A DNA stretch of 64,000 nucleotides from Escherichia coli. Its GTDB lineage: Bacteria; Pseudomonadota; Gammaproteobacteria; Enterobacterales; Enterobacteriaceae. A program made the translations under genes and the position numbers. Below are positions 1,052-34,301 of the stretch, one piece after another. The notes beneath the pieces were generated by a model, which was not told where the DNA came from, searched no databases, and worked only from the letters and a program-made list of their open reading frames with translations. Each line of letters starts with the position of its first letter. Within the stretch, counting starts at the first letter, position 1. The stretch is taken from NCBI RefSeq assembly GCF_003019035.1, contig NZ_CP027447.1; one strand, given 5' to 3'.

Positions 1052-1321
1052 ATGGCAAAGGTTATCTTTGAGTTTACATGGCTGGAAAGTAGTGACGGTT
1101 GCAATGGGCGCAGAGAAGTTCTGGATGCAAAAGCATGTCTTGCAGATATCTCGCCAACGGAAAATACCGGGCCTCATGATTTACTGGCAAATATCGTCCT
1201 GACTATGGCTCCTGAAATTATTAAAAAGGCCAAAGATGAGATGCTGACCACTATGAAGAAAGTGGGTATGGAGGCTGAATGTGATTTAGTACCACATCCG
1301 GTGAATGCGGTTAAACATTAA
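1052..1321 (+). CDS. Hypothetical early (semi-essential region) protein
   Basis: 89-aa ORF with upstream AAGGAG; tightly packed same-strand early operon. Confidence 0.5.
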   Translation: MAKVIFEFTWLESSDGCNGRREVLDAKACLADISPTENTGPHDLLANIVLTMAPEIIKKAKDEMLTTMKKVGMEAECDLVPHPVNAVKH

Positions 1322-1341
1322 TTCGCAAAGGAGCGCTGACA

Positions 1342-3234: not shown

Positions 3235-3758
3235 TGTTTTTTAAAACGTCAAATCCCGCAGCACTGCTGGCGTGGGACCAGTTTATGGCGGACTGTCTGA
3301 AACTACGCGAAGAAGCCCGCCATCTTGATAAGGTTCTGGGTTGTGGTTGCCGGTCAGTATTCAGCACAGGTATTGGTGGGCGTTATTTTCATGGTGTGAA
3401 CTTTCCGGGGAATGAGCGCCCTTTCTCGCGGGAGCTGTGGACCGTACAACGGCCCGCATCAGGTAACAGTTGCAGGCCTAGAACTTCGCGGATACCTGTT
3501 CATCTCAGGGAGCAGGCAAAAGAGCTGGCGAAAATATGGCAGGAGAATATTCCGGTCACTTATGCCCGCACAGATGCTCTTTTACCCGCACTGGGACTGG
3601 ATTTCAGCGCAACAATATTCGGGCCGCTCCGGTGGTTCCGTGTTGGTGATGTGATTTACGTCATGACGGGGATGACACCCGCACAGGGCTGCATGACGGA
3701 AATCCTGTCCGATGAATTCATGAAGGCAAAGATTGCGTTAAAGGGGGCCGCTAAATGA
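3234..3758 (+). CDS. Hypothetical early protein
   Basis: ATG at 3234 overlaps the upstream stop (GTGATG); the six-frame ORF at 3195 is rejected as an upstream extension. Confidence 0.5.
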   Translation: MFFKTSNPAALLAWDQFMADCLKLREEARHLDKVLGCGCRSVFSTGIGGRYFHGVNFPGNERPFSRELWTVQRPASGNSCRPRTSRIPVHLREQAKELAKIWQENIPVTYARTDALLPALGLDFSATIFGPLRWFRVGDVIYVMTGMTPAQGCMTEILSDEFMKAKIALKGAAK

Positions 3759-4423
3759 AAGAACGTGGCGTTGCTTTTAATGACGATATGGTCAGGGCAA
3801 TTCTCGAAGGAAGAAAGACGCAAACACGCCGCCCGGTAAAAAATGTCGGACACGATAACTGTCTGGTTATCCATCGTAACGGTGTTTATACCCACGTTAT
3901 GGATGCACCTGAGCATGGTTTATGCCCGTTCGGTAACGTTGGTGATCGCATCTGGGTCCGTGAAGCGTGGGCAATATTAGGCAATGAGGATGGTTGCAGT
4001 GTGGACTGGAACGGCAACCTTTGTCATGGCGATGAGAAGAAGGCAGCAAGGATTTATCGGGCAAGTTGTGAACAAAAGCCTGGTGATTACGGTCTGTGGT
4101 CAATACCTGATGATGCTGACTGGAAACCTCGCACTGTGAATGAAAAGTTTGATGGCAGGTGGTGCCCATCTATCCACATGCCGCGCTGGGCGTCGCGCAT
4201 TCTGTTGGGAATAACCGACGTGCGTGTGGAACGGCTGCATGATATTAGCGAGGCAGATGCGAAAGCGGAAGGCGCATTTCCGGCGACGTACAAAATTACG
4301 CCACCGGAAGCTGTTTATCGCGTTGGTTTTGGTGATATCTGGCGCGGTATTTATGGGCAAGATAACTGGCTGTCTAATCCGTGGGTATGGGTAATTGAGT
4401 TTAAGCGTATTCAGGAAGCATAA
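3755..4423 (+). CDS. Early protein with N-terminal ASCH-like (PUA-fold) motif
   Basis: 222 aa; N-terminal motif MVRAILEGRKTQTRRP resembles the ASCH GxKTxTxR signature (compare E. coli YqfB); start overlaps upstream stop. Confidence 0.55.
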   Translation: MKERGVAFNDDMVRAILEGRKTQTRRPVKNVGHDNCLVIHRNGVYTHVMDAPEHGLCPFGNVGDRIWVREAWAILGNEDGCSVDWNGNLCHGDEKKAARIYRASCEQKPGDYGLWSIPDDADWKPRTVNEKFDGRWCPSIHMPRWASRILLGITDVRVERLHDISEADAKAEGAFPATYKITPPEAVYRVGFGDIWRGIYGQDNWLSNPWVWVIEFKRIQEA

Positions 4424-4425
4424 CT

Positions 4426-4767
4426 ATGAGCAAATCACTTAATGCACGTTGTATTCGCCGTTGGGAAGTCAGATTTAAGCCTGTTTGTGATTCAAAAGTT
4501 AGCCCTCACATGCGTAAAAGCTTTTTGCGTGGGGTGCGTGAATTAGGGCTTATTACGGCTGAAAACATGGTTGAAAGCATGGCTGAGAAAAACGCCAGGT
4601 TTGATTACGACGGCAAGGACACAGGCTGGTCACCGGAGTTTTCTAACTGGTATGCAACATGCCGAGAAAAGTATTGTAAAGAGGCCCGCGACTATCTGGA
4701 TGAAGAAGTCACAAACGATGAGATCGATGAAGAAATCAGAACTGAGCTAGAGTATTGGAATGACTAA
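4426..4767 (+). CDS. Hypothetical early protein with acidic C-terminus
   Basis: 113-aa ORF, coupled to neighbours. Confidence 0.5.
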   Translation: MSKSLNARCIRRWEVRFKPVCDSKVSPHMRKSFLRGVRELGLITAENMVESMAEKNARFDYDGKDTGWSPEFSNWYATCREKYCKEARDYLDEEVTNDEIDEEIRTELEYWND

Positions 4768-5392
4768 TCTGGCCGATATGACCGGAAAGTGTTTCAGCGA
4801 TACAAGCGGTGTGGTAGCACCGCTTTTTAAAGGTATGATCATGAGTCGCACATCCCTGATTAAATTAATCCATGTCGCCCGTCGTGATCTACAACTCGAC
4901 GACGATACTTACCGCGCTTTTCTGATGCAGAAAACGGGCAAAATCAGTTGCCGCGAGCTGACGGTAACGCAACTGGAACAGGTGCTCGATGCCATGAAAG
5001 AACGCGGCTTTAAGAAGCTGAATAAACATCCACGTCGCCGCTTTAAGGGGCATGTCACGCCCCGCGAGAAGGTATACAAAGTCTGGCAGCAGATGGCAGA
5101 AGACGGTTTTATTACCGATGGCGGTGATGTGGCGCTGGATAAATATGTTCAGCGCCTGACGGCGAAACGTAATGGCGGACAGGGTGTTTCCACGCTGGCG
5201 TGGTGTCATGGCGACACCCTGTTGATTGTTCTCGAAACTCTCAAGCAGTGGCATATCCGCTGTATTCGTGAAGCCTTTTCCCGTCACGGGCTTCCGTTGC
5301 CGGTCAGTCCGTCCGGGCGTGAACTGCGCGGCTATGATGCCATGACGGCGGCTTATGCCCATGCCAGAAAGACACGGAGGATGGCACAATGA
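4760..5392 (+). CDS. gemA: GemA-like early protein
   Basis: Position immediately upstream of mor as in Mu; true start may be the internal ATG at 4841 (MSRTSLIKL...). Confidence 0.65.
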   Translation: MTNLADMTGKCFSDTSGVVAPLFKGMIMSRTSLIKLIHVARRDLQLDDDTYRAFLMQKTGKISCRELTVTQLEQVLDAMKERGFKKLNKHPRRRFKGHVTPREKVYKVWQQMAEDGFITDGGDVALDKYVQRLTAKRNGGQGVSTLAWCHGDTLLIVLETLKQWHIRCIREAFSRHGLPLPVSPSGRELRGYDAMTAAYAHARKTRRMAQ

Positions 5393-5808: not shown

Positions 5809-6099
5809 ACGTCCTCAATATCCTGTGATGAATAACCGTACCGGGGGAAATCATCATGGGTAAAGGCTGGAATGCATCCTTTCATCTTGGCAGACGTGAG
5901 CGGCTGCGTCAGGAGGTTTTGCACCGTGTCGCCGGTGGGCCTCGGCCTTCGCCCCGCGACTATACCGGTCATGATGGCACCCACGGCAGTTATTACATGA
6001 AAGGCTGGCAGTCAGTTGATATGCCGGAAATTCTTCACCACTGTCAACGTTATAAGGAAAAATATTGTGTACAGAAAATTCAGTGATGAATGTTTCGGG

Positions 6100-7230: not shown

Positions 7231-7600
7231 AAGTTTACTGCTGGCAGCCGTGTTTGCCGCCGTTCTGTCTGGGGTGTTGTGGCACAGGCTGGACAGCACC
7301 CGCCACGATAACCAGACGCTGCGCCGTGAATTACAGACGGAGCAACAGGCCCGCAACACGGCTGAATGGTTGTTACACAGTCAGGAACAGACGATGCAGG
7401 TATTTTCCGCTATCCGTGCCGCAAATCGTGCCGCGCGGCTGGCAGATGAGACAGAACATCATGATGCAAAACAAAAAATTACAACCGCCATTACCGGTGA
7501 CAATTGCAGCACTCGTCCTGTGCCTGCCGTTGCTGCTGACAGGTTGCGGGAACTCGAAAAACGCACCCGTGCCATCGGTGGTGATCCTGCCCGAAACTGA
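7214..7600 (+). CDS. Inner-membrane spanin subunit (Rz-like)
   Basis: 128 aa; N-terminal transmembrane helix then charged coiled-coil region; directly after lys. Confidence 0.6.
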   Translation: MTFASKSLLLAAVFAAVLSGVLWHRLDSTRHDNQTLRRELQTEQQARNTAEWLLHSQEQTMQVFSAIRAANRAARLADETEHHDAKQKITTAITGDNCSTRPVPAVAADRLRELEKRTRAIGGDPARN

Positions 7601-7802
7601 TGCAGAACTGACGGAAGCAACGCCCGTTCCGCCCATGCCACAGCCCCTGACGTGGGGAGCATCCCTTCTCTGGAATGCTGACCTGCTGATGGCGCTCGGG
7701 CAGTGCAACCGCGACAAGGCATCAGTCCGGGAACAGGAGACCCGGAGGAAAGAAATTTATGAACGAAGACCAGAACCGGGCGGTGGCGCTGCTGCTCGCT
7801 GA
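7461..7802 (+). CDS. Outer-membrane spanin lipoprotein (Rz1-like), overlapping the inner spanin in another frame
   Basis: Lipoprotein signal with lipobox LLLTGC; proline-rich mature part; ATGATG start at 7461. Confidence 0.5.
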   Translation: MMQNKKLQPPLPVTIAALVLCLPLLLTGCGNSKNAPVPSVVILPETDAELTEATPVPPMPQPLTWGASLLWNADLLMALGQCNRDKASVREQETRRKEIYERRPEPGGGAAAR

Positions 7803-7953
7803 ACTCTGGCAGGGGAATACCCGTGATATTCCCCGTCCGGCGGCGTATGACCCGCCTGTATTGTGTGCCGGTTGCGGTCGTGAGCTGCGGCCTGATGTGC
7901 TGAGACAGCAGCCAATGGCGAACTACTGCCACTGGTGCCGTGGAGCAGAATAA
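7759..7953 (+). CDS. Small zinc-finger protein (CxxC...CxxC)
   Basis: 64-aa ORF with CAGCG and CHWC motifs. Confidence 0.4.
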   Translation: MNEDQNRAVALLLAELWQGNTRDIPRPAAYDPPVLCAGCGRELRPDVLRQQPMANYCHWCRGAE

Positions 7954-8252
7954 TGGATTTGATTTCAGTTTTAGCGTTATGGCCTTACCTGTTGCCTGTT
8001 GTGGCCGGTGGGGCCGTCTGGGCGATGCGTCGTAGTTTTGCCAGCACCGAGCGTGTGGAGCGTCTTGAAAACCGGATGACCGAAATGGAAACCCGCTACG
8101 CCAGCATCCCTGGCACAGAAGATGTACACGAAATGCGCCTGCGTATTGCAGAGCTGTCCGGCGATATCCGGGTGCTGTCCCAGCGGGTGCAGTCATTTTC
8201 CCATCAACTGGAGCTGCTGCTTGAAAACGCAGTAAACCGGAGTAATTCATGA
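7953..8252 (+). CDS. Small membrane protein, possible lysis accessory protein
   Basis: ATG at 7953 overlaps the upstream stop (TAATG); N-terminal transmembrane segment then coiled coil. Confidence 0.5.
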   Translation: MDLISVLALWPYLLPVVAGGAVWAMRRSFASTERVERLENRMTEMETRYASIPGTEDVHEMRLRIAELSGDIRVLSQRVQSFSHQLELLLENAVNRSNS

Positions 8253-9133: not shown

Positions 9134-10789
9134 ATGAACACCAGAGAAAACAACCTTAAAGCCCTTCATGCCCCCCGAAAAATCAACCTGCGTGAGGAAG
9201 CCGAACTGCTCGGCGTGAATATCGTGACCGATATCGGGGAAGCACAGCCCCGCAATGAACCGGTTTTTCTGGGCTATCAGCGCCGCTGGTTTGAGGATGA
9301 AAGCCAGATTTGCATCGCTGAAAAATCCCGTCGTACCGGTCTGACATGGGCCGAAGCGGGCCGCAATGTCATGACGGCAGCAAAGCCGCGCCGCCGTGGC
9401 GGTCGCAACGTCTTTTATGTGGGTTCCCGTCAGGAAATGGCGCTGGAATATATCGCCGCCTGTGCCCTGTTTGCCCGCGCCTTTAACCAGCTGGCAAAGG
9501 CTGATGTCTGGGAGCAGACCTTCTGGGACAGCGACAAAAAAGAAGAAATCCTCACTTATATGATCCGTTTCCCTAACAGCGGATTTAAGGTGCAGGCGCT
9601 GTCAAGCCGTCCGTCTAACCTGCGTGGTTTGCAGGGGGACGTGGTGATTGATGAGGCGGCATTTCATGAAGCCCTGGACGAACTCCTGAAAGCGGCCTTT
9701 GCTCTCACCATGTGGGGTGCCCGCGTGCGGATCATATCGACACATAACGGCGTCGATAACCTGTTTAACCAGTACATTCAGGATGCGCGCGAGGGGCGCA
9801 AGGATTACAGCGTTCACCGCATCACGCTGGATGATGCCATCGCTGACGGGTTGTACCGACGTATCTGTTACGTCACGAATCAGCCGTGGTCGCCGGAAGC
9901 GGAAAAAGCCTGGCGTGATGGCCTGTACCGGAATGCGCCGAATAAAGAGAGTGCCGACGAGGAATACGGCTGCATTCCTAAAAAATCCGGGGGCGCTTAT
10001 CTGTCACGCGTGCTGATTGAAGCCGCCATGACGCCAGCGCGGGATATCCCGATTCTGCGTTTTGAAGCCCCGGACGATTTTGAATCGCTGACACCACAAA
10101 TGCGCCACGGCATCGTTCAGGACTGGTGTGAACAGGAGCTGCTCCCGTTGCTCGATGCGCTGTCGCCGCTCAATAAACACGTACTGGGCGAAGACTTTGC
10201 ACGCCGTGGCGACCTGACGGTGTTTGTTCCGCTTGCCATCACTCCTGACTTACGCAAACGCGAATGTTTCCGCGTGGAGCTGCGTAATGTGACCTATGAC
10301 CAGCAGCGACAAATCCTTTTATTCATTCTGTCCCGTTTGCCCCGTTTTACCGGCGCTGCATTTGATGCCACCGGTAACGGCGGTTATCTGGCAGAAGCCA
10401 CCCGTCTGATTTATGGCCCGGAGATGATCGACTGTGTGAATCTGACCGCATCCTGGTATCAGGAGTGGATGCCAAAACTGAAAGGCGAGTTTGAAGCGCA
10501 GAACATCACGATTGCCCGGCACCAGACCACTCTTGATGACCTGCTCCACATCAAGGTGGACAAAGGTATTCCGCAGATTGATAAGGGGCGCACAAAAGAT
10601 GAAGGTGGTAAAGGCCGACGACATGGCGACTTTGCCGTGGCGCTCTGTATGGCTGTCAGAGCGTCTTATATGAATGGTTTTGTTATCGACGAGGACAGCA
10701 TACAGGCGCTGCCACCACGCCACCGTGGTGATGATGTTGATAACGATGATTTTGATGATTATCACCAGTTTGAACGAGGGGGCTGGTAA
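9134..10789 (+). CDS. E: Terminase large subunit
   Basis: ATG at 9134 (MNTRENNLKAL...), 551 aa; the six-frame ORF start at 8942 is an in-frame upstream extension overlapping the previous gene. Confidence 0.85.
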   Translation: MNTRENNLKALHAPRKINLREEAELLGVNIVTDIGEAQPRNEPVFLGYQRRWFEDESQICIAEKSRRTGLTWAEAGRNVMTAAKPRRRGGRNVFYVGSRQEMALEYIAACALFARAFNQLAKADVWEQTFWDSDKKEEILTYMIRFPNSGFKVQALSSRPSNLRGLQGDVVIDEAAFHEALDELLKAAFALTMWGARVRIISTHNGVDNLFNQYIQDAREGRKDYSVHRITLDDAIADGLYRRICYVTNQPWSPEAEKAWRDGLYRNAPNKESADEEYGCIPKKSGGAYLSRVLIEAAMTPARDIPILRFEAPDDFESLTPQMRHGIVQDWCEQELLPLLDALSPLNKHVLGEDFARRGDLTVFVPLAITPDLRKRECFRVELRNVTYDQQRQILLFILSRLPRFTGAAFDATGNGGYLAEATRLIYGPEMIDCVNLTASWYQEWMPKLKGEFEAQNITIARHQTTLDDLLHIKVDKGIPQIDKGRTKDEGGKGRRHGDFAVALCMAVRASYMNGFVIDEDSIQALPPRHRGDDVDNDDFDDYHQFERGGW

Positions 10790-27693: not shown

Positions 27694-29048
27694 TGTTTTA
27701 TATTGATAACGACAGCGGCGTAACCGTCATGCCGCCCGTATCCGCCCAGCGTAGTGCTATCGTTCGCTGGTTTTCAGAAGGTGACGGGAATAATGTTATC
27801 ACATGGCCCGGCATGGACTGGTTTAATATTGTTCAGGCGGAGTTATTAAACACGCTGGAAGAAGCTGGTATTCAACCGGATAAAACAAAATTAAACCAGC
27901 TTGCACTGTCCATTAAAGCCATTATGAGCAATAACGCGCTGCTGATAAAAAATAACCTCAGCGAAATTAAAACTGCCGGGGCATCAGCACAGCGTACAGC
28001 ACGTGAAAATCTGGATATCTATGATGCCAGCCTGAACAAAAAAGGACTCGTTCAGCTAACCAGTGCCACTGACAGCCCCAGTGAAACGCTGGCAGCCACC
28101 GCAAAAGCGGTGAAAATTGCGATGGATAATGCCAATGCCCGTCTGGCAAAAGACCGGAACGGAGCAGATATTCCCAATAAGCCGCTGTTTATCCAAAACC
28201 TCGGTTTACAGGAAACGGTAAACAAGGCTGGTAACGCTGTTCAGCGTTCTGGCGATACAATGACCGGAAAACTGAATCTACCACAGACATCTGCATTCGG
28301 CGTTAATACCGATAATGCACTGGGTGGTAATTCCATTACTCTCGGAGATAACGACACCGGTATTAAACAGGGCGGCGATGGTGTCCTTTTATTCTATTTA
28401 AATGGACAACTGATATTTGGGCTTCAACCCACATCCGCTGATTTTTATAAGCGAGTTGCCTACATTCATCAGGGAGTAGCTCCAGATGGGAGTGGCGCAT
28501 TTGCAGACCAGTTAAATAATGCCACCGCGCCTTTTGTTCAGACGCAGTTTGCCTGGAATCCCACTCCTGGCGGTCATTACGTACCGATAGCTAAGGGCTT
28601 GTCCATTCGCAATGGACAGGGGTATCCAGGTGCGGTCAGCTTTGGTTATTTACTAACTGAACAAATGGGATTTCCCATACCATGCATTCATATGCGTGGA
28701 GATTACGGAGCTGATGCTTTGTGGCAGTTTAACCCGAACGATAAATCTTTTATTTCACCGGGGGCTCTTGTTGCGGGTGGCATCCGTTATAACACCGATG
28801 GAAATATATTTGGCGGGTGTTGGGGTTCAAATTTAGCTGATTATCTCAATAGCACATATGTAAGAGACATTCGACTTGGTAGCGCAGAATCAATATCAGC
28901 ATGGCGAGGCCCTGGTTACTGGGATACTTCTGGATATGTTCTGACCGCAGCCGGAAACAGCAACACCGATGAATTTATTGATACATTAACCAGAAGGCCT
29001 ATTCAGAAGTTGATTGGTGGGACATATTATAACGTTGTGAGTATTTGA
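27693..29048 (+). CDS. S: Tail fibre protein S: constant part outside the G segment, variable part inside
   Basis: 451 aa; gix site at 28188-28215 lies within the gene; C-terminus YYNVVSI parallels the S' C-terminus WYNVASV. Confidence 0.8.
28188..28215 (+). repeat. gix recombination site (left) for Gin invertase
   Basis: TTATCCAAAACCTCGGTTTACAGGAAAC; inverted copy at 31023-31048 with one mismatch in the 26 aligned bases. Confidence 0.85.
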
Positions 29049-29049
29049 C

Positions 29050-29577
29050 ATGATGCATTTAAAAAACATTAAAGCAGGGAACCCAAAAACACCTGAACAA
29101 TACCAGTTAACCAAAAAAGCTGGAGTGGTCTGGCTTTATACTGAAGATGGTAAAAACTGGTACGAAGAACAAAAAAACTTTCAACCAGATACTATAAAAA
29201 TTGCATACGATAAAAATAATGTGATTGTTACCGTAAGCAAAGATGTTTCAACGATTAACCCGGAAGGTTTAAGTGTTGTTGAAGTATCCGATATTACGGC
29301 AAATCGTCGCGCAGACAATAACGGAAACTGGATGTTTCTGGATGGTAAAGTAGTAAAGCGGGAATATACAAAACAGGAGCTGCAACAGCAGGCAGAGTTA
29401 CAAAAATCCGCTTTGCTTTCCGAAGCGGAGTCTGTGATTCAACCGCTGGAACGTGCTGTCAGGCTGAATATGGCAACTAATGAGGAACGCGCACGACTGG
29501 AGTCATGGGAACGCTACAGTGTTCTGGTCAGCCGTGTGGATACGGCAAATCCTGAATGGCCACAAAAGCCTGAATAA
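29050..29577 (+). CDS. U: Tail fibre assembly protein U
   Basis: 175 aa; paralogous to the U' ORF on the opposite strand. Confidence 0.8.
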
Positions 29578-29582
29578 AAATT

Positions 29583-29602
29583 AAGGCCCGATAGCGGGCC
29601 TT
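29583..29602. terminator. Hairpin between convergent U and U', possible bidirectional terminator
   Basis: AAGGCCCG-ATAG-CGGGCCTT; A/T-rich flank on the U' side. Confidence 0.5.
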
Positions 29603-29605
29603 GTC

Positions 29606-30139
29606 TCATTCTGGTTGTTCCGGGAATGTTACAGGAAGAACAGAGGTATCTGTGGCATCAACCTGCTGCATGTATAACATCCAGTTAATGAGTCTTTGCC
29701 TGTCTGAATCGCTGATAATTCCCAGCGCAAGCTGTGTTTGCCAGCACTGCGTTTCCTCTCTGGCCTGTCGCAGCAAAATCTGTTTCTGAATTTCAGCCAG
29801 TTGACGTAGTTCTTCATCAGTCCGGGGGCGTTTCATGACCTTGCCATCCTGAAACACCCAGTCACCGAGAATATCGGCCCGGCGATTCGCTGTCGTGTCG
29901 GGTAATTCGACAACGCTCATTCCTTCCGGGTTAATAGACGACACATCTTTTTCAATATAGCGAATGATACCTCTGTCATCGTAAGCGATTTTTAGTGTGT
30001 CTGCCTGAAAGGCTTTTTGTGCCTCATACCAGTTCTGACCATCTTCAGCGTAAAGCCAGATAACACCATGTCTCTTTGTTAACTCATACTGTTCCAGTGT
30101 TTTAGCATTACCCGCTTTTATGTTCTTTAAGTGCATCAT
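29606..30139 (-). CDS. Tail fibre assembly protein U' (silent in this orientation)
   Basis: 177 aa, same N-terminus as U ([11 protein letters not shown]...). Confidence 0.8.
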   Translation of the reverse strand: MMHLKNIKAGNAKTLEQYELTKRHGVIWLYAEDGQNWYEAQKAFQADTLKIAYDDRGIIRYIEKDVSSINPEGMSVVELPDTTANRRADILGDWVFQDGKVMKRPRTDEELRQLAEIQKQILLRQAREETQCWQTQLALGIISDSDRQRLINWMLYMQQVDATDTSVLPVTFPEQPE

Positions 30140-30140
30140 A

Positions 30141-30998
30141 TTAAACGCTCGCTACATTATACCAGGTGCCATTTATATACTTTTGAACGGGTCTGTAATA
30201 AACGCCCGCTATATTATCGGCAGAGTTGGACCCTGTATCCTGAACATTAATACCAGACAATACATGACCTGACGGGCACTTGAAATTCCATGTTTGCCAG
30301 TTGTTCACACCATGATATTGCTGTGAACCAAGACGAACATCTTTTACGTATCGGGAATCAAAGTTACTCCAGTTACTTGGTTGTATGTGACCGTTTACAG
30401 CAAATATCACCGAATTATCTGTATTTCGCTGACTATAGAAATGCCAGCCTGAATCATCACCAAGCTCTGCAACAGTTGGTCTTGATGAAGTGCCCCATAA
30501 ATTAAAACCTACGTTTTTCGTGGAGTTGTTGGAGCTGGATAGCGTGAATTTTTTACCATCCCCGGCCTGAACGTTTTTAAAAGCAATAGCAACTCCATTC
30601 TGAAAGCGGAATACTCGCTGACTATTAGCGTAAACATCCAGAATACCGTCTCCATTCTGTTTAAATCCGGTATCATTATCACCAAGAACAATAGAGCTAC
30701 CACCTAACGCATTCGTCGTACCAACTCCAAGGCTGCCATTAATGACGGCATTAACAAGAATATTTAGTGCATCCCATTTCAGCGTCATCAGGTCTTTTGT
30801 TGTGGTGCTTTGTTTGCTTCTCCATTTGAAATATTCATTGCCGTTGTCGCCTGTTTCAAACCACATGTATGAATCAGTGTCACCATCGGCATCATTTTTA
30901 AATCCAATCTTCGCCCAGTCAGTATTTCGAATCCAGGCAAGGATTGAGTCATTTTCAAAAGTAAGCCCACCGGACAAAGTATCGCCATTTTTTTGCAC
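30141..30998 (-). CDS. Alternative tail fibre variable part S' (promoterless, silent in this orientation)
   Basis: 285-aa ORF from first ATG; real reading frame should run from the gix site. Confidence 0.75.
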   Translation of the reverse strand: MQKNGDTLSGGLTFENDSILAWIRNTDWAKIGFKNDADGDTDSYMWFETGDNGNEYFKWRSKQSTTTKDLMTLKWDALNILVNAVINGSLGVGTTNALGGSSIVLGDNDTGFKQNGDGILDVYANSQRVFRFQNGVAIAFKNVQAGDGKKFTLSSSNNSTKNVGFNLWGTSSRPTVAELGDDSGWHFYSQRNTDNSVIFAVNGHIQPSNWSNFDSRYVKDVRLGSQQYHGVNNWQTWNFKCPSGHVLSGINVQDTGSNSADNIAGVYYRPVQKYINGTWYNVASV

Positions 30999-31022
30999 GG
31001 CATTACCAGCCCTGTTTACCGT

Positions 31023-31048: not shown

Positions 31049-31102
31049 TGGCCGTTTCCGGCCTGCATGGCATGATTTGCGATTTTGGACGGGAGATTCA
31101 GC

Positions 31103-31684
31103 GTGCTGATTGGCTATGTAAGGGTATCAACAAATGACCAGAATACAGACCTGCAACGAAACGCTCTTGTTTGTGCAGGATGTGAACAAATATTTGAAGA
31201 TAAATTAAGCGGAACAAGGACAGACAGACCTGGATTAAAGCGCGCTTTAAAGCGTCTTCAAAAAGGTGACACACTGGTTGTCTGGAAACTGGATCGCCTC
31301 GGGCGAAGCATGAAACATCTGATTTCTCTCGTCGGAGAACTACGGGAGCGAGGGATTAATTTTCGCAGCCTTACTGACAGTATTGATACGTCATCCCCAA
31401 TGGGGCGTTTTTTCTTCCACGTTATGGGTGCCCTGGCTGAAATGGAACGAGAACTAATCATCGAGCGAACGATGGCTGGACTTGCTGCCGCCAGAAATAA
31501 AGGCCGTATTGGTGGGCGACCACCTAAACTAACCAAAGCGGAATGGGAGCAGGCCGGGCGTTTATTAGCACAAGGAATCCCCCGCAAGCAGGTTGCATTG
31601 ATCTACGATGTGGCCCTGTCAACTCTGTATAAAAAACACCCCGCGAAACGAGCGCATATAGAAAACGACGATCGAATCAATTAA
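31103..31684 (+). CDS. gin: Gin serine DNA invertase
   Basis: Probable GTG start at 31103 (VLIGYVRVSTNDQNTDLQ...), 193 aa; serine recombinase resolvase/invertase family. Confidence 0.9.
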   Translation: MLIGYVRVSTNDQNTDLQRNALVCAGCEQIFEDKLSGTRTDRPGLKRALKRLQKGDTLVVWKLDRLGRSMKHLISLVGELRERGINFRSLTDSIDTSSPMGRFFFHVMGALAEMERELIIERTMAGLAAARNKGRIGGRPPKLTKAEWEQAGRLLAQGIPRKQVALIYDVALSTLYKKHPAKRAHIENDDRIN

Positions 31685-31778: not shown

Positions 31779-31967
31779 ATGAAATCAATTCGCTGTAAAA
31801 ACTGCAACAAACTGTTATTTAAGGCGGATTCCTTTGATCACATTGAAATCAGGTGTCCGCGTTGCAAACGTCACATCATAATGCTGAATGCCTGCGAGCA
31901 TCCCACGGAGAAACATTGTGGGAAAAGAGAAAAAATCACGCATTCTGACGAAACCGTGCGTTATTGA
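31779..31967 (+). CDS. com: Com, zinc-finger translational activator of mom
   Basis: 62 aa with CxxC...CxxC; overlaps the mom reading frame. Confidence 0.85.
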
Positions 31968-32634
31968 GTATGAAGGCCAGATTGTTGGCTATGGTTCAAA
32001 GGAGCTGCGCGTTGAAACCATATCCTGCTGGCTGGCCCGCACAATTATTCAGACAAAGCACTATTCCCGCCGTTTTGTGAATAACTCTTACCTCCACCTG
32101 GGAGTGTTCAGCGGACGCGATCTGGTTGGCGTTCTCCAGTGGGGATATGCCCTTAACCCCAACTCAGGTCGTCGTGTCGTGCTTGAAACGGATAACCGGG
32201 GCTATATGGAGTTGAATCGCATGTGGCTACACGACGACATGCCCCGCAACTCTGAATCACGGGCCATCAGCTACGCGCTGAAAGTTATCAGATTACTGTA
32301 TCCGTCAGTGGAGTGGGTTCAGTCCTTTGCTGACGAACGCTGCGGACGCGCAGGCGTTGTGTATCAGGCGTCGAATTTTGATTTTATTGGCAGCCATGAA
32401 AGCACGTTCTACGAGCTGGATGGTGAGTGGTATCACGAGATAACGATGAACGCAATTAAGCGCGGTGGACAACGAGGCGTGTATTTACGGGCTAATAAAG
32501 AGCGTGCCGTGGTGCACAAATTTAATCAGTATCGCTACATCAGGTTCCTGAACAAGCGAGCAAGGAAGCGACTAAATACTAATCTATTCAGGATCCAACC
32601 ATATCCAAAATCAACTCTGACTAGTATCAAATAA
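31888..32634 (+). CDS. mom: Mom DNA modification protein (anti-restriction adenine modification)
   Basis: 248-aa ORF from first in-frame ATG, overlapping com; real start uncertain. Confidence 0.8.
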
Positions 32635-32769
32635 CTTATTTATTCCTGCTGAAAAGCAGCTCCTCATGGCATAAAATTGTTCACGTGAGTTTAAAATGAC
32701 CAAATGGCAGTACAGTATTTGGTCATTTTATGGGGTGAATTTTAAAGTCAAAACGATGGTAAGGTGCAT

Positions 32770-33105
32770 ATGAAAAAAATACTCATAGCAGTACTACTTT
32801 GCTTTGGTGTTCTTTCTGCTAATCAGGCAATAGCGGCTGTTACCTTAAGCGGTAAGTATCCTGCATGCATATCTGCTAATGAATTCGAGCGATTAAGCTC
32901 AATTTTGCAACACGAAGATCAAGAGGCGTTTGAAGAGATCTTTAAGACATCATGCTTTATGCCTAAAAAGGGGGTTAAAGTTGATAAAGTTGTTTCTATG
33001 GGGTGGACCAGTGGAGTTGCGCATGTCAAAGTTTATGTAAAAGGCAATCTTTACGATCTTTGGACTAACACCGAAAATCTTCAGTCCGAGAAGGCTGGTA
33101 AATAA
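32770..33105 (+). CDS. Small secreted protein of unknown function between mom and the Mu right end
   Basis: ATG at 32770 preceded by AAGGTG; signal peptide MKKILIAVLLCFGVLSANQAIA; mature part ~90 aa with two Cys; AT-rich. Confidence 0.55.
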   Translation: MKKILIAVLLCFGVLSANQAIAAVTLSGKYPACISANEFERLSSILQHEDQEAFEEIFKTSCFMPKKGVKVDKVVSMGWTSGVAHVKVYVKGNLYDLWTNTENLQSEKAGK

Positions 33106-33330
33106 CGCTGTAATCAACGTGTAATCACATCTCCTACCAGCTATCGCCTGATAAAGTTAGGTGATAGCTATTTCAATACTCTCTAGTTTCACTGAAAGCA
33201 CGAAACTTAATACCTCCATTCCAGATTGCTTAATAATCGAGCATTTTTATCTTGAATGTTTTTGCGCGCTTTATCAGCCATACCCTAAGTGATCCCCATG
33301 TAATGAATAAAAAGCAGTAATTAATACTGC

Positions 33331-33407
33331 TGTTTCATTTGAAGCGCGAAAGCTAAAGTTTTCGCATTTATCGTGAAACGCTTTCGCGTTTTTCGTGCGC
33401 CGCTTCA
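33331..33407 (+). repeat. Mu right-end terminal sequence with MuA transposase binding sites (attR)
   Basis: TGTTTCATTTGAAGCGCGAAAG and TTTTCGCATTTATCGTGAAACG repeats; terminus ...CGTGCGCCGCTTCA. Confidence 0.85.
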
Positions 33408-33412
33408 TTCAG
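33408..33412. repeat. Candidate 5-bp target-site duplication copy (TTCAG)
   Basis: First five host bases after the Mu end; the matching copy would flank the off-window left end. Confidence 0.4.
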
Positions 33413-33706
33413 GGTGAACGTCCACTCTTTTTGATCGTCAGACGCTTTCCAGCTACTTGCCAGATCGCCTTCAACGTCGGTTGAGCCTTTATCACCGTCC
33501 GTTTTGTACTGAACCAGTCGCTGATAAGACGGGTAGGTCACTGTCCAGTCGTTATTATCAATTGTCACCGCTGGGTCGAGGGTTTGTGGGTCGGCAGCTT
33601 TACCGATCACCAGCATATCTTTCGGTACGGCGGCGTGCGCAACCGGCATTGTTGTGGCAAGGACGATCGCGAGCAATGTAGGACGAAACAAAATCGATCT
33701 CTTCAT
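33408..33706 (-). pseudogene. ddpA: ddpA 5' fragment (D-Ala-D-Ala dipeptide-binding protein), truncated by the prophage
   Basis: Signal peptide and N-terminal ~99 codons (MKRSILFRPTLLAIV...DQKEWTFTL) run straight into the Mu terminus. Confidence 0.8.
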
Positions 33707-33719
33707 GACAGTTTCCTGA

Positions 33720-34301
33720 TTAACTGGCGTGCTGTGTGCCAGGGGATATAAAACAGGTGAATTGATCAGCGAGTAGTGGGTAACTCGCTGCCTGGGGTAA
33801 TTCGAAGTGCCACCATTCGCTCGGGATACCGACAAAGCCACCGCCAGTCATAATCGCATTCAGCAACAGCCGATTGCGCTGAGCGGCTGGCGGGACGGAA
33901 GGGTGATAAGCATGGGAACGTTCGTGCATTTCATCGAACTCTGCACCCATATCCAGTATGTTCCCGTGCTCATCACGAAGCGTCAGGTCGATCGCTGTGC
34001 CACGGCTGTGATTAGAACCGACCGCCACATCAACAACATATTGCGGGTCTGGGCAGGCTTGCCACAACATCGCCTGTGCTTGTTGTGGGCGATACGCATC
34101 GTAAATCACCAGTTGTAAGCCTGACAGCTGGGCGATACTGATACTTTTCGCCAGCGCAGTAATCGCATCCTTGTGTAACAGACAACGCGCTTGCTGATAA
34201 ATAGCTTTGCCTGTGATGTTATCAGCACAGGCGTATTTCAATTCGATCTCCAGATCAGGGAAGATCACGGCTAAATCAACCAGTTCGGTGGTATCCGACA
34301 T
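33720..34301 (-). CDS. ddpX: D-Ala-D-Ala dipeptidase
   Basis: 193 aa, VanX-like. Confidence 0.9.
   Translation of the reverse strand: MSDTTELVDLAVIFPDLEIELKYACADNITGKAIYQQARCLLHKDAITALAKSISIAQLSGLQLVIYDAYRPQQAQAMLWQACPDPQYVVDVAVGSNHSRGTAIDLTLRDEHGNILDMGAEFDEMHERSHAYHPSVPPAAQRNRLLLNAIMTGGGFVGIPSEWWHFELPQAASYPLLADQFTCFISPGTQHAS

Follow-up and report, generated by a model that had tools for sequence, protein, structure and literature searches.

A 670-bp cassette at the right end of a Mu-type prophage of Escherichia coli carries a cargo gene for a predicted secreted protein

A Mu-type prophage in the chromosome of Escherichia coli (contig NZ_CP027447.1, of which a stretch of 64,000 nucleotides, hereafter the window, was analyzed) carries between mom and its right end a 670-bp cassette that is absent from the phages Mu and SfMu (32604-33273, plus strand, as delimited by local alignment and composition). 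We consider it very likely that this right-end segment is a genuine moron, i.e., a cargo gene for a secreted protein, as the first-pass annotation of this DNA had supposed. Mu is a textbook phage whose genome is regarded as fully mapped, with mom as the last gene, and a natural variant with an extra gene for a secreted protein is widespread. Morons are a well-known kind of gene, and nothing about this one contradicts current understanding.

To place the cassette, the prophage was aligned to Mu. Positions 1-33407 of the window aligned with Mu coordinates 3733-36717, with 95 to 99% identity over most of the length; because the alignment starts at Mu 3733, the left end of the prophage lies outside the window. 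The gin (31085-31684), com (31779-31967), and mom (31888-32634, plus strand, according to the ORF list, the alignment to Mu, and the Mu annotation) genes were located, and the canonical Mu terminus (...TTTTCGTGCGCCGCTTCA / ...CGCCGCTTCA) ends at 33407. The last 134 bp of Mu, which correspond to the right end with its transposase-binding region (33274-33407, plus strand, by alignment), are 98.5% identical to Mu and 100% identical to SfMu. The distance from the mom stop (32634) to the Mu right end (33407) is 773 bp, which agrees with the approximately 770 bp first estimated. That mom is the last gene before the right end of Mu, as initially stated, is also borne out by reference Mu (NC_000929) and SfMu, in both of which the end of mom and the terminus are 115 bp apart. 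The portion of the prophage inside the window exceeds the corresponding stretch of Mu by 422 bp, an amount well within the right-end slack left by Mu headful packaging.

Past 33407, the DNA shows 100% identity to an E. coli chromosome on which ddpA, ddpX, and dosP are annotated. The prophage sits inside ddpA, which comes first among the transporter genes in the operon for D-Ala-D-Ala dipeptide (ddpXABCDF); the 5′ part of the broken gene occupies 33408-33706 on the minus strand (ORF list and comparison with the E. coli chromosome), and the lysogen should be ddpA negative. The ddpX gene lies at 33720-34301, also on the minus strand, and its transcription would proceed into the Mu right end on the strand opposite the cargo ORF. 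A minus-strand ORF of 44 codons crosses the Mu right end (33274-33408) and is probably a spurious gene call produced by the insertion; at least one RefSeq genome (locus L041, 2595-2744) has a comparable “hypothetical protein” annotated across the border between a Mu end and host DNA. The host part of the window (33408-64000) has a G+C content of 45.4%, which is low for E. coli. Elsewhere in the prophage, the early region differs from that of reference Mu by approximately 1.08 kb (window 3722-4799) standing in place of Mu 7442-8187 (gp13-gp15) and holding two ORFs (3755-4423 and 4426-4767) that match phrog_874 and phrog_6675, two families without an assigned function. The gp7 region (window 1072-1326) is diverged from that of Mu, and Mu 9463-9831 (gp19) is absent, with the junction at 6068-6070. 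The invertible G-segment (28268-31010), which comprises the variable parts of the tail-fiber and fiber-assembly genes, is either about 70% identical to Mu or unalignable.

The segment between mom and the terminus was then compared with other Mu right ends. In a megablast search of 32635-33407 against 50,697 phage records, the last 134 nt (nucleotides 640 to 773 of the 773-nt query) were the sole match. The same query matched 39 of 5,426 complete RefSeq E. coli genomes, again by the last 134 nt only, and the first 639 nt were found in none of these 39 genomes with a Mu right end. In these genomes, mom ends approximately 115 bp from the terminus, and the three that were opened displayed the ordinary layout from mom to the end. 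Since it is missing in Mu, in SfMu, and at 39 of 39 Mu right ends, the 32604-33273 segment is an insertion (cargo) and not conserved Mu sequence. The observation that would have refuted the first-pass reading, the same segment in reference Mu, was looked for and not made. Its composition is foreign as well and confirms the AT richness noted at first: the G+C content is 37.8% for the insert and 39.3% for the ORF versus 52.7% for the Mu part of the window.

The cassette interrupts mom within its last codons. The two flanking alignments overlap in Mu coordinates, and on either side of the cassette lies one copy of an imperfect direct repeat, approximately 21 bp of the mom 3′ end; both copies were defined by three-way alignment. 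The left copy (32595-32615, plus strand; CCAACCATATCCAAAATCAAC) is a degenerate form of the last ~21 nt of Mu mom, the right copy (33274-33294, plus strand; TCAGCCATACCCTAAGTGATC) is identical to the Mu mom 3′ end, and the two are identical at 14 of 21 positions. The right copy and the DNA to its right are essentially Mu, which leaves the terminal 134 bp intact. On the left side, mom is 97% identical to Mu up to 32603-32609 and has 248 codons compared to 241 in Mu; because the Mu stop codon TGA reads TCA in the left copy, Mom gains seven residues (STLTSIK) encoded by cassette DNA (within 32604-32634). Divergence from Mu is noticeably higher over the final ~50 nt of mom than over the remainder of the gene, which suggests that this junction either derives from a less closely related Mu-type phage or has decayed since the insertion. 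An insertion sequence or MITE was also considered and rejected: no inverted repeat pairing both ends of 32604-33273 was found in an inverted-repeat scan, no transposase is encoded, the ORF for the secreted protein is the only sizeable one, and the flanks are the direct mom repeat. A search of 32400-33500 against Rfam returned no RNA family.

The cargo ORF (32770-33105, plus strand) is supported by the ORF list, by homologues, by the ratio of nonsynonymous to synonymous change (dN/dS), and by a structure model. Annotated at first as 112 codons, it does have this length, i.e., 111 residues and a stop codon, with the ATG at 32770 rather than at 32771; an alternative GTG two codons upstream would give a protein of 113 residues. 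The ribosome-binding site attributed to it is a Shine-Dalgarno-like AAGGTG (32761-32766, plus strand, read from the sequence) located 3 nt before the ATG. Comparison with homologues gave a proportion of synonymous differences (pS) of 0.65 to 0.88, i.e., saturated, a proportion of nonsynonymous differences (pN) of 0.15 to 0.37, and a dN/dS of 0.08 to 0.18 for the pairs where it was computable. Given this saturated synonymous and low nonsynonymous change, the cargo ORF is a real gene and not a chance reading frame. The predicted N terminus is of the Sec type (MKK/ILIAVLLCFGVL/SANQAIA, followed by AVTL), with a charged n-region, a hydrophobic core of 12 residues (10 to 15 are expected), and small residues at positions −3 and −1, all read from the sequence; hydrophobicity peaks at 3.5 (Kyte-Doolittle scale, 9-residue window). 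Codons 1 to 22 (32770-32835, plus strand) would thus encode the signal peptide and 32836-33102 (plus strand) a mature protein of 89 residues and approximately 9.9 kDa. The signal peptide, the cleavage site after AIA, and the two cysteines of the mature part were all recognized in the first-pass annotation, and both cysteines have since proved invariant among relatives (see below). A lipoprotein was considered and rejected, as the lipobox L-[AS]-[GA]-C with a conserved +1 cysteine is not present: the sequence reads VLLC-FG, with leucine at −1, and homologues have S, F, or L instead of the cysteine of VLLC.

We next turned to the protein family. Twelve close homologues of the cargo protein share 50 to 100% identity with it, and a profile search of 1.84 billion representative proteins retrieved 152 clusters at an E value of ≤1e-3, mostly of about 100 residues. 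One deep HMM match (P0052, 1,971 residues) is a plant PPR-repeat protein and was discarded as a false positive. In an alignment of 50 family sequences, C33 and C62 are the only invariant residues, and D50 and T99 are nearly so. An N-terminal hydrophobic stretch is found in all 41 short members sampled, and in longer relatives a cytoplasmic zinc ribbon and a membrane segment replace the signal peptide in front of the domain. The signal peptide or anchor, together with the invariant cysteines, argue for an extracytoplasmic domain with a structural disulfide, in keeping with the secretion originally predicted. Database searches assigned no function. No Pfam family covers the domain in the cargo protein or in 50 relatives up to an E value of ≤10, the only Pfam matches among the relatives being zinc ribbons in the N-terminal parts of longer members. 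PHROGs gave only matches with E values of 0.1 to 0.2, to families of unknown function; PADLOC-DB, which holds models of antiphage defense, gave no family at an E value of ≤1; and the sole NCBIfam match, between residues 1 to 24 and Stx2B, was rejected as a trivial signal-peptide resemblance. A sequence profile search of the PDB yielded nothing meaningful, the family and profile searches detected no similarity to known virulence or stress proteins, and tblastn against plasmids gave no match. A profile built from an 11-sequence family alignment retrieved 9 viral contigs. The AlphaFold model of the cargo protein has a pLDDT of 84 to 95 across the mature domain, and the best matches in the fold search are SH3-type domains, all of them weak, while fold searches of AFDB50 and BFVD returned uncharacterized proteins only. 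No publication on the cargo gene or its family turned up when the literature was searched by accession number and by topic. As judged from sequence and predicted structure, the cargo protein is a member of a new, uncharacterized family of putative periplasmic proteins without a Pfam family.

The identical cargo protein is recorded on 612 contigs from E. coli, Shigella, Salmonella, and Cronobacter, and the carriers include pathogens (Shigella flexneri, Salmonella, and Cronobacter). In all 10 loci that were read, the cargo gene follows com-mom, and the stretch from mom to the right end (1,520 bp including the cassette) is 99.4 to 100% identical across them. Ten different host sequences abut the Mu end; since the same cassette is found at 10 different chromosomal sites, the Mu variant has transposed repeatedly while carrying it. 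The lengths of the fiber genes in the G-segment vary among these 10 prophages, and, as their G-segments differ, the host-range module has been swapped independently of the cargo gene.

More diverged family members lie in other elements. P2-like prophages of Citrobacter, Kosakonia, and Rouxiella end with a homologue of 43 to 69% identity, in the order gpD-ogr, the ogr terminator, the homologue in the same orientation as ogr, a strong terminator, and host genes. The final gene of an isolated Yersinia phage, vB_YenM_42.18, encodes a protein 57% identical to the cargo protein; the paper describing this phage does not discuss the gene. A Salmonella homologue with 53% identity, present in approximately 990 contig blocks, belongs to a different Mu-like prophage common in Salmonella, in which it lies between gemA and a Mor-family activator gene (5001-5321 in loci L023 to L026, contigs of Salmonella enterica), antisense to its lytic neighbors and directly followed by a bidirectional terminator. 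Among distant relatives, P0020 is encoded on a metagenomic contig (L046, 335-2546) in a compact operon with an S24 CI-like repressor and an integrase, where the repressor stop abuts the start of the relative (TAAATG) and the integrase begins 22 nt downstream. Another adjoins an HTH repressor and an integrase, and yet another sits in a primase-bearing island. The relative P0027 has a chromosomal-looking context, adjoining an AraC/GyrI-type regulator with toxin-antitoxin genes nearby. Based on these contexts, the family is a recurrent accessory gene of temperate elements, captured at four or more distinct positions. Its recurrence at accessory positions in P2-like and Mu-like prophages, together with the foreign composition of the insert and the hairpin downstream of the ORF, upholds the reading of the gene as a moron.

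Signals that could drive or terminate transcription of the cargo gene were examined around the ORF. A sigma-70-like match (CTGAAA-17-TAAAAT, 9/12; 32649-32677, plus strand, by consensus scan) is a weak candidate promoter; the scan 5′ of the ORF found this 1 site versus 2.6 ± 2.0 in shuffled sequences, no better than chance, and matches upstream of the homologues are equally weak. A palindrome with perfect 14-nt arms (TAAAATGACCAAAT at 32692-32705 and ATTTGGTCATTTTA at 32717-32730) was identified by inverted-repeat scan 40 to 79 nt 5′ of the ATG (32692-32730). It had been noted before with the same 11-nt spacer and with arms of 9 nt (32697-32725), which turn out to be the core of the longer arms; this shorter core is found a single time in the 64-kb window and was absent from all of 100 shuffles. 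The RNA fold of 32680-32775 (96 nt), which includes the palindrome, has an energy of −25 kcal/mol (z = −3.8). The palindrome could be an operator, a stabilizing 5′-untranslated region hairpin, or a barrier that insulates the gene from mom read-through. It is not shared upstream of the homologues in P2-like and Salmonella Mu-like prophages, and a family-wide operator is not supported, the DNA similarity between contexts being confined to the coding region. Downstream, a hairpin with a 14-bp stem begins 34 nt 3′ of the stop codon (33139-33169, plus strand, by inverted-repeat scan and RNA fold; z = −3.5) and is followed by AUUUCAAU. Its U tract is poor and the terminator scan missed it; a terminator with a weak U tract is a plausible reading, and at the matching position 3′ of the gene, clear intrinsic terminators follow the homologues in other phages. 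Between mom and the cargo ORF, the terminator scan detected no canonical or strong terminator.

Because no promoter stands out at this locus, expression in lysogens is argued from the relatives only. These are antisense to lytic genes, insulated by terminators at prophage ends, or placed in a repressor-integrase operon, which points to transcription independent of the lytic program. From this context, and not from the locus itself, we regard it as fairly probable that the cargo gene is expressed from the prophage. Here, where no strong terminator stands between mom and the cargo gene, late transcription from the mom promoter could equally well read through.

The gene is dispensable, since most Mu prophages lack it. 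Its independent capture by P2-like, other Mu-like, and integrase-bearing elements and the strong purifying selection on it nonetheless argue for a real selective benefit. For its function, exclusion of or resistance to phages is our best guess, and a tentative one; against it count the dispensability of the gene, the lack of homology between its product and known exclusion or defense proteins, and the chromosomal-looking setting of P0027. This guess follows the logic of the Glo protein of phage K139, whose gene has the cI-...-int arrangement also seen around a distant relative and whose annotation is that of a periplasmic protein for exclusion. According to the mechanism that we propose, an AT-rich foreign cassette of 670 bp would have recombined into the last mom codons of a Mu-type phage, at a point just inside the 134-bp right end needed by the transposase, leaving a Mu variant that is viable and mobile with the cassette. 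The 111-residue precursor would be exported by Sec and cleaved after AIA by signal peptidase I, yielding a periplasmic protein of approximately 10 kDa with one conserved disulfide (C33-C62) and a predicted fold of two helices followed by an SH3-like beta-barrel. The gene would be transcribed in lysogens, independently of the lytic program, and its product may bind a target in the periplasm, either peptidoglycan or, in an incoming phage, the tail tip or the machinery for DNA entry. Such binding would block genome entry and amount to superinfection exclusion at the level of the envelope. We put forward only tentatively the entire chain leading from moron to secreted protein, to lysogen expression, and to superinfection exclusion. 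A broader proposal is possible and more doubtful still: free-standing periplasmic proteins with an SH3-like fold stapled by a disulfide would form a hitherto undescribed family, represented in E. coli by the cargo gene, and temperate phages and satellite-like elements (Mu-like, P2-like, and others) would have acquired it repeatedly, would express it from the prophage, and would thereby block superinfecting genomes in the periplasm. If true, it would represent a new single-protein mechanism of superinfection exclusion common to unrelated phage lineages.

The gene might instead benefit the host, as a factor of lysogenic conversion or host fitness whose periplasmic product alters the envelope of the lysogen (stress, lysozyme or serum resistance, adhesion or aggregation, or peptidoglycan remodeling) and helps the bacterium without blocking phages. 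The evidence from the cassette, from secretion, and from context fits this explanation as well as it fits exclusion, the best fold matches include SH3-like domains from cell-wall enzymes of bacteria, and the carriers include the pathogens named above. There is also a precedent in neaT, an AT-rich single-gene moron of a P2-like prophage that affects virulence (PMC3573123). However, the protein bears no likeness to known virulence or stress proteins, and the family is tied to mobile elements in very different bacteria, environmental ones included, for which a phage-centered role fits better than one restricted to a single host niche. We therefore consider a host-fitness role unlikely, if worth keeping in view.

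The gene could also be a late lytic accessory gene, transcribed by read-through from the C-activated mom promoter and acting late in the periplasm, for instance on peptidoglycan, on lysis timing, or by stopping the injection of progeny into infected cells or debris. The ORF is indeed oriented like com-mom with no canonical terminator between them, the hairpin that follows mom in Mu now lies 3′ of the cassette (33309-33335, by terminator scan and alignment), and the P2-like homologue follows the late activator gene ogr in the same orientation. In the P2-like prophages, however, a strong terminator separates ogr from the homologue; moreover, the Salmonella homologue is antisense to its lytic neighbors, a distant relative is located within a repressor-integrase operon, and read-through from mom could be halted by the 14-nt-arm hairpin that precedes the ORF. 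A late lytic role thus appears improbable. Finally, a neutral passenger, carried along through illegitimate recombination and now without a function in the phage, is very improbable: most Mu prophages are without the cassette and no promoter rises above background, but the homologues are under strong purifying selection, the ORF is intact and 99 to 100% conserved in 10 independent insertions, and the family has been captured at at least four distinct positions in different elements.

With phage exclusion as the preferred reading, the cargo gene offers a single 336-bp unit in which a role in exclusion or in envelope fitness would be cheap to test. A function, if found, would give a role to about 150 clusters of “hypothetical” proteins; with no phenotype, the gene would be an ordinary uncharacterized moron.

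The cassette closely resembles the morons of the Hendrix/Juhala concept and those described in P2-like prophages (PMC3573123). Like them, it is extra DNA between genes that are contiguous in close relatives, and it consists of a single gene with a downstream hairpin and is A+T rich relative to the phage. The cargo gene is likewise unneeded for lytic growth in relatives, and its family occurs at accessory positions in several phages. It differs in that its own promoter is here only a candidate (9/12) and in that its position is new in both the Mu and the P2-like groups, the new cargo sites being the mom 3′ end in Mu and the ogr-att interval in P2-like phages. The moron positions named for P2 are A/Q and G/FI only (PMC3573123). 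The available text of studies of P2 hotspots does not mention ogr, and the further defense hotspots given in the available part of a 2026 preprint do not include the ogr-att interval.

The closest functional parallel is Glo of the P2-like Vibrio phage K139, annotated in the phage record as a periplasmic protein involved in phage exclusion. Both are small signal-peptide proteins of temperate contractile-tailed phages, encoded at a prophage end or in a lysogeny module, and the cI-orf2-glo-int arrangement of K139 has the same repressor-X-integrase layout as the distant relative P0020. Homology between the two was rejected (hhalign probability of 0.4%; Glo has 137 residues), and the likeness is one of logic and not of ancestry. 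Sim of phage P1 is another periplasmic exclusion protein encoded next to lysogeny genes. At the level of the fold, SH3b cell-wall-binding domains are among the matches, all weak, including the Listeria Lmo1076 autolysin (5jqc) and NlpC/P60 proteins (3h41 and 6sqx). Phages phi80 (Cor), T5 (Llp), and lambda (Bor) also have accessory genes for small exported proteins with an action on the envelope, in these cases exclusion or conversion factors of the outer membrane. While those three are lipoproteins, the cargo protein has instead an AXA signal peptidase I site and no lipobox.
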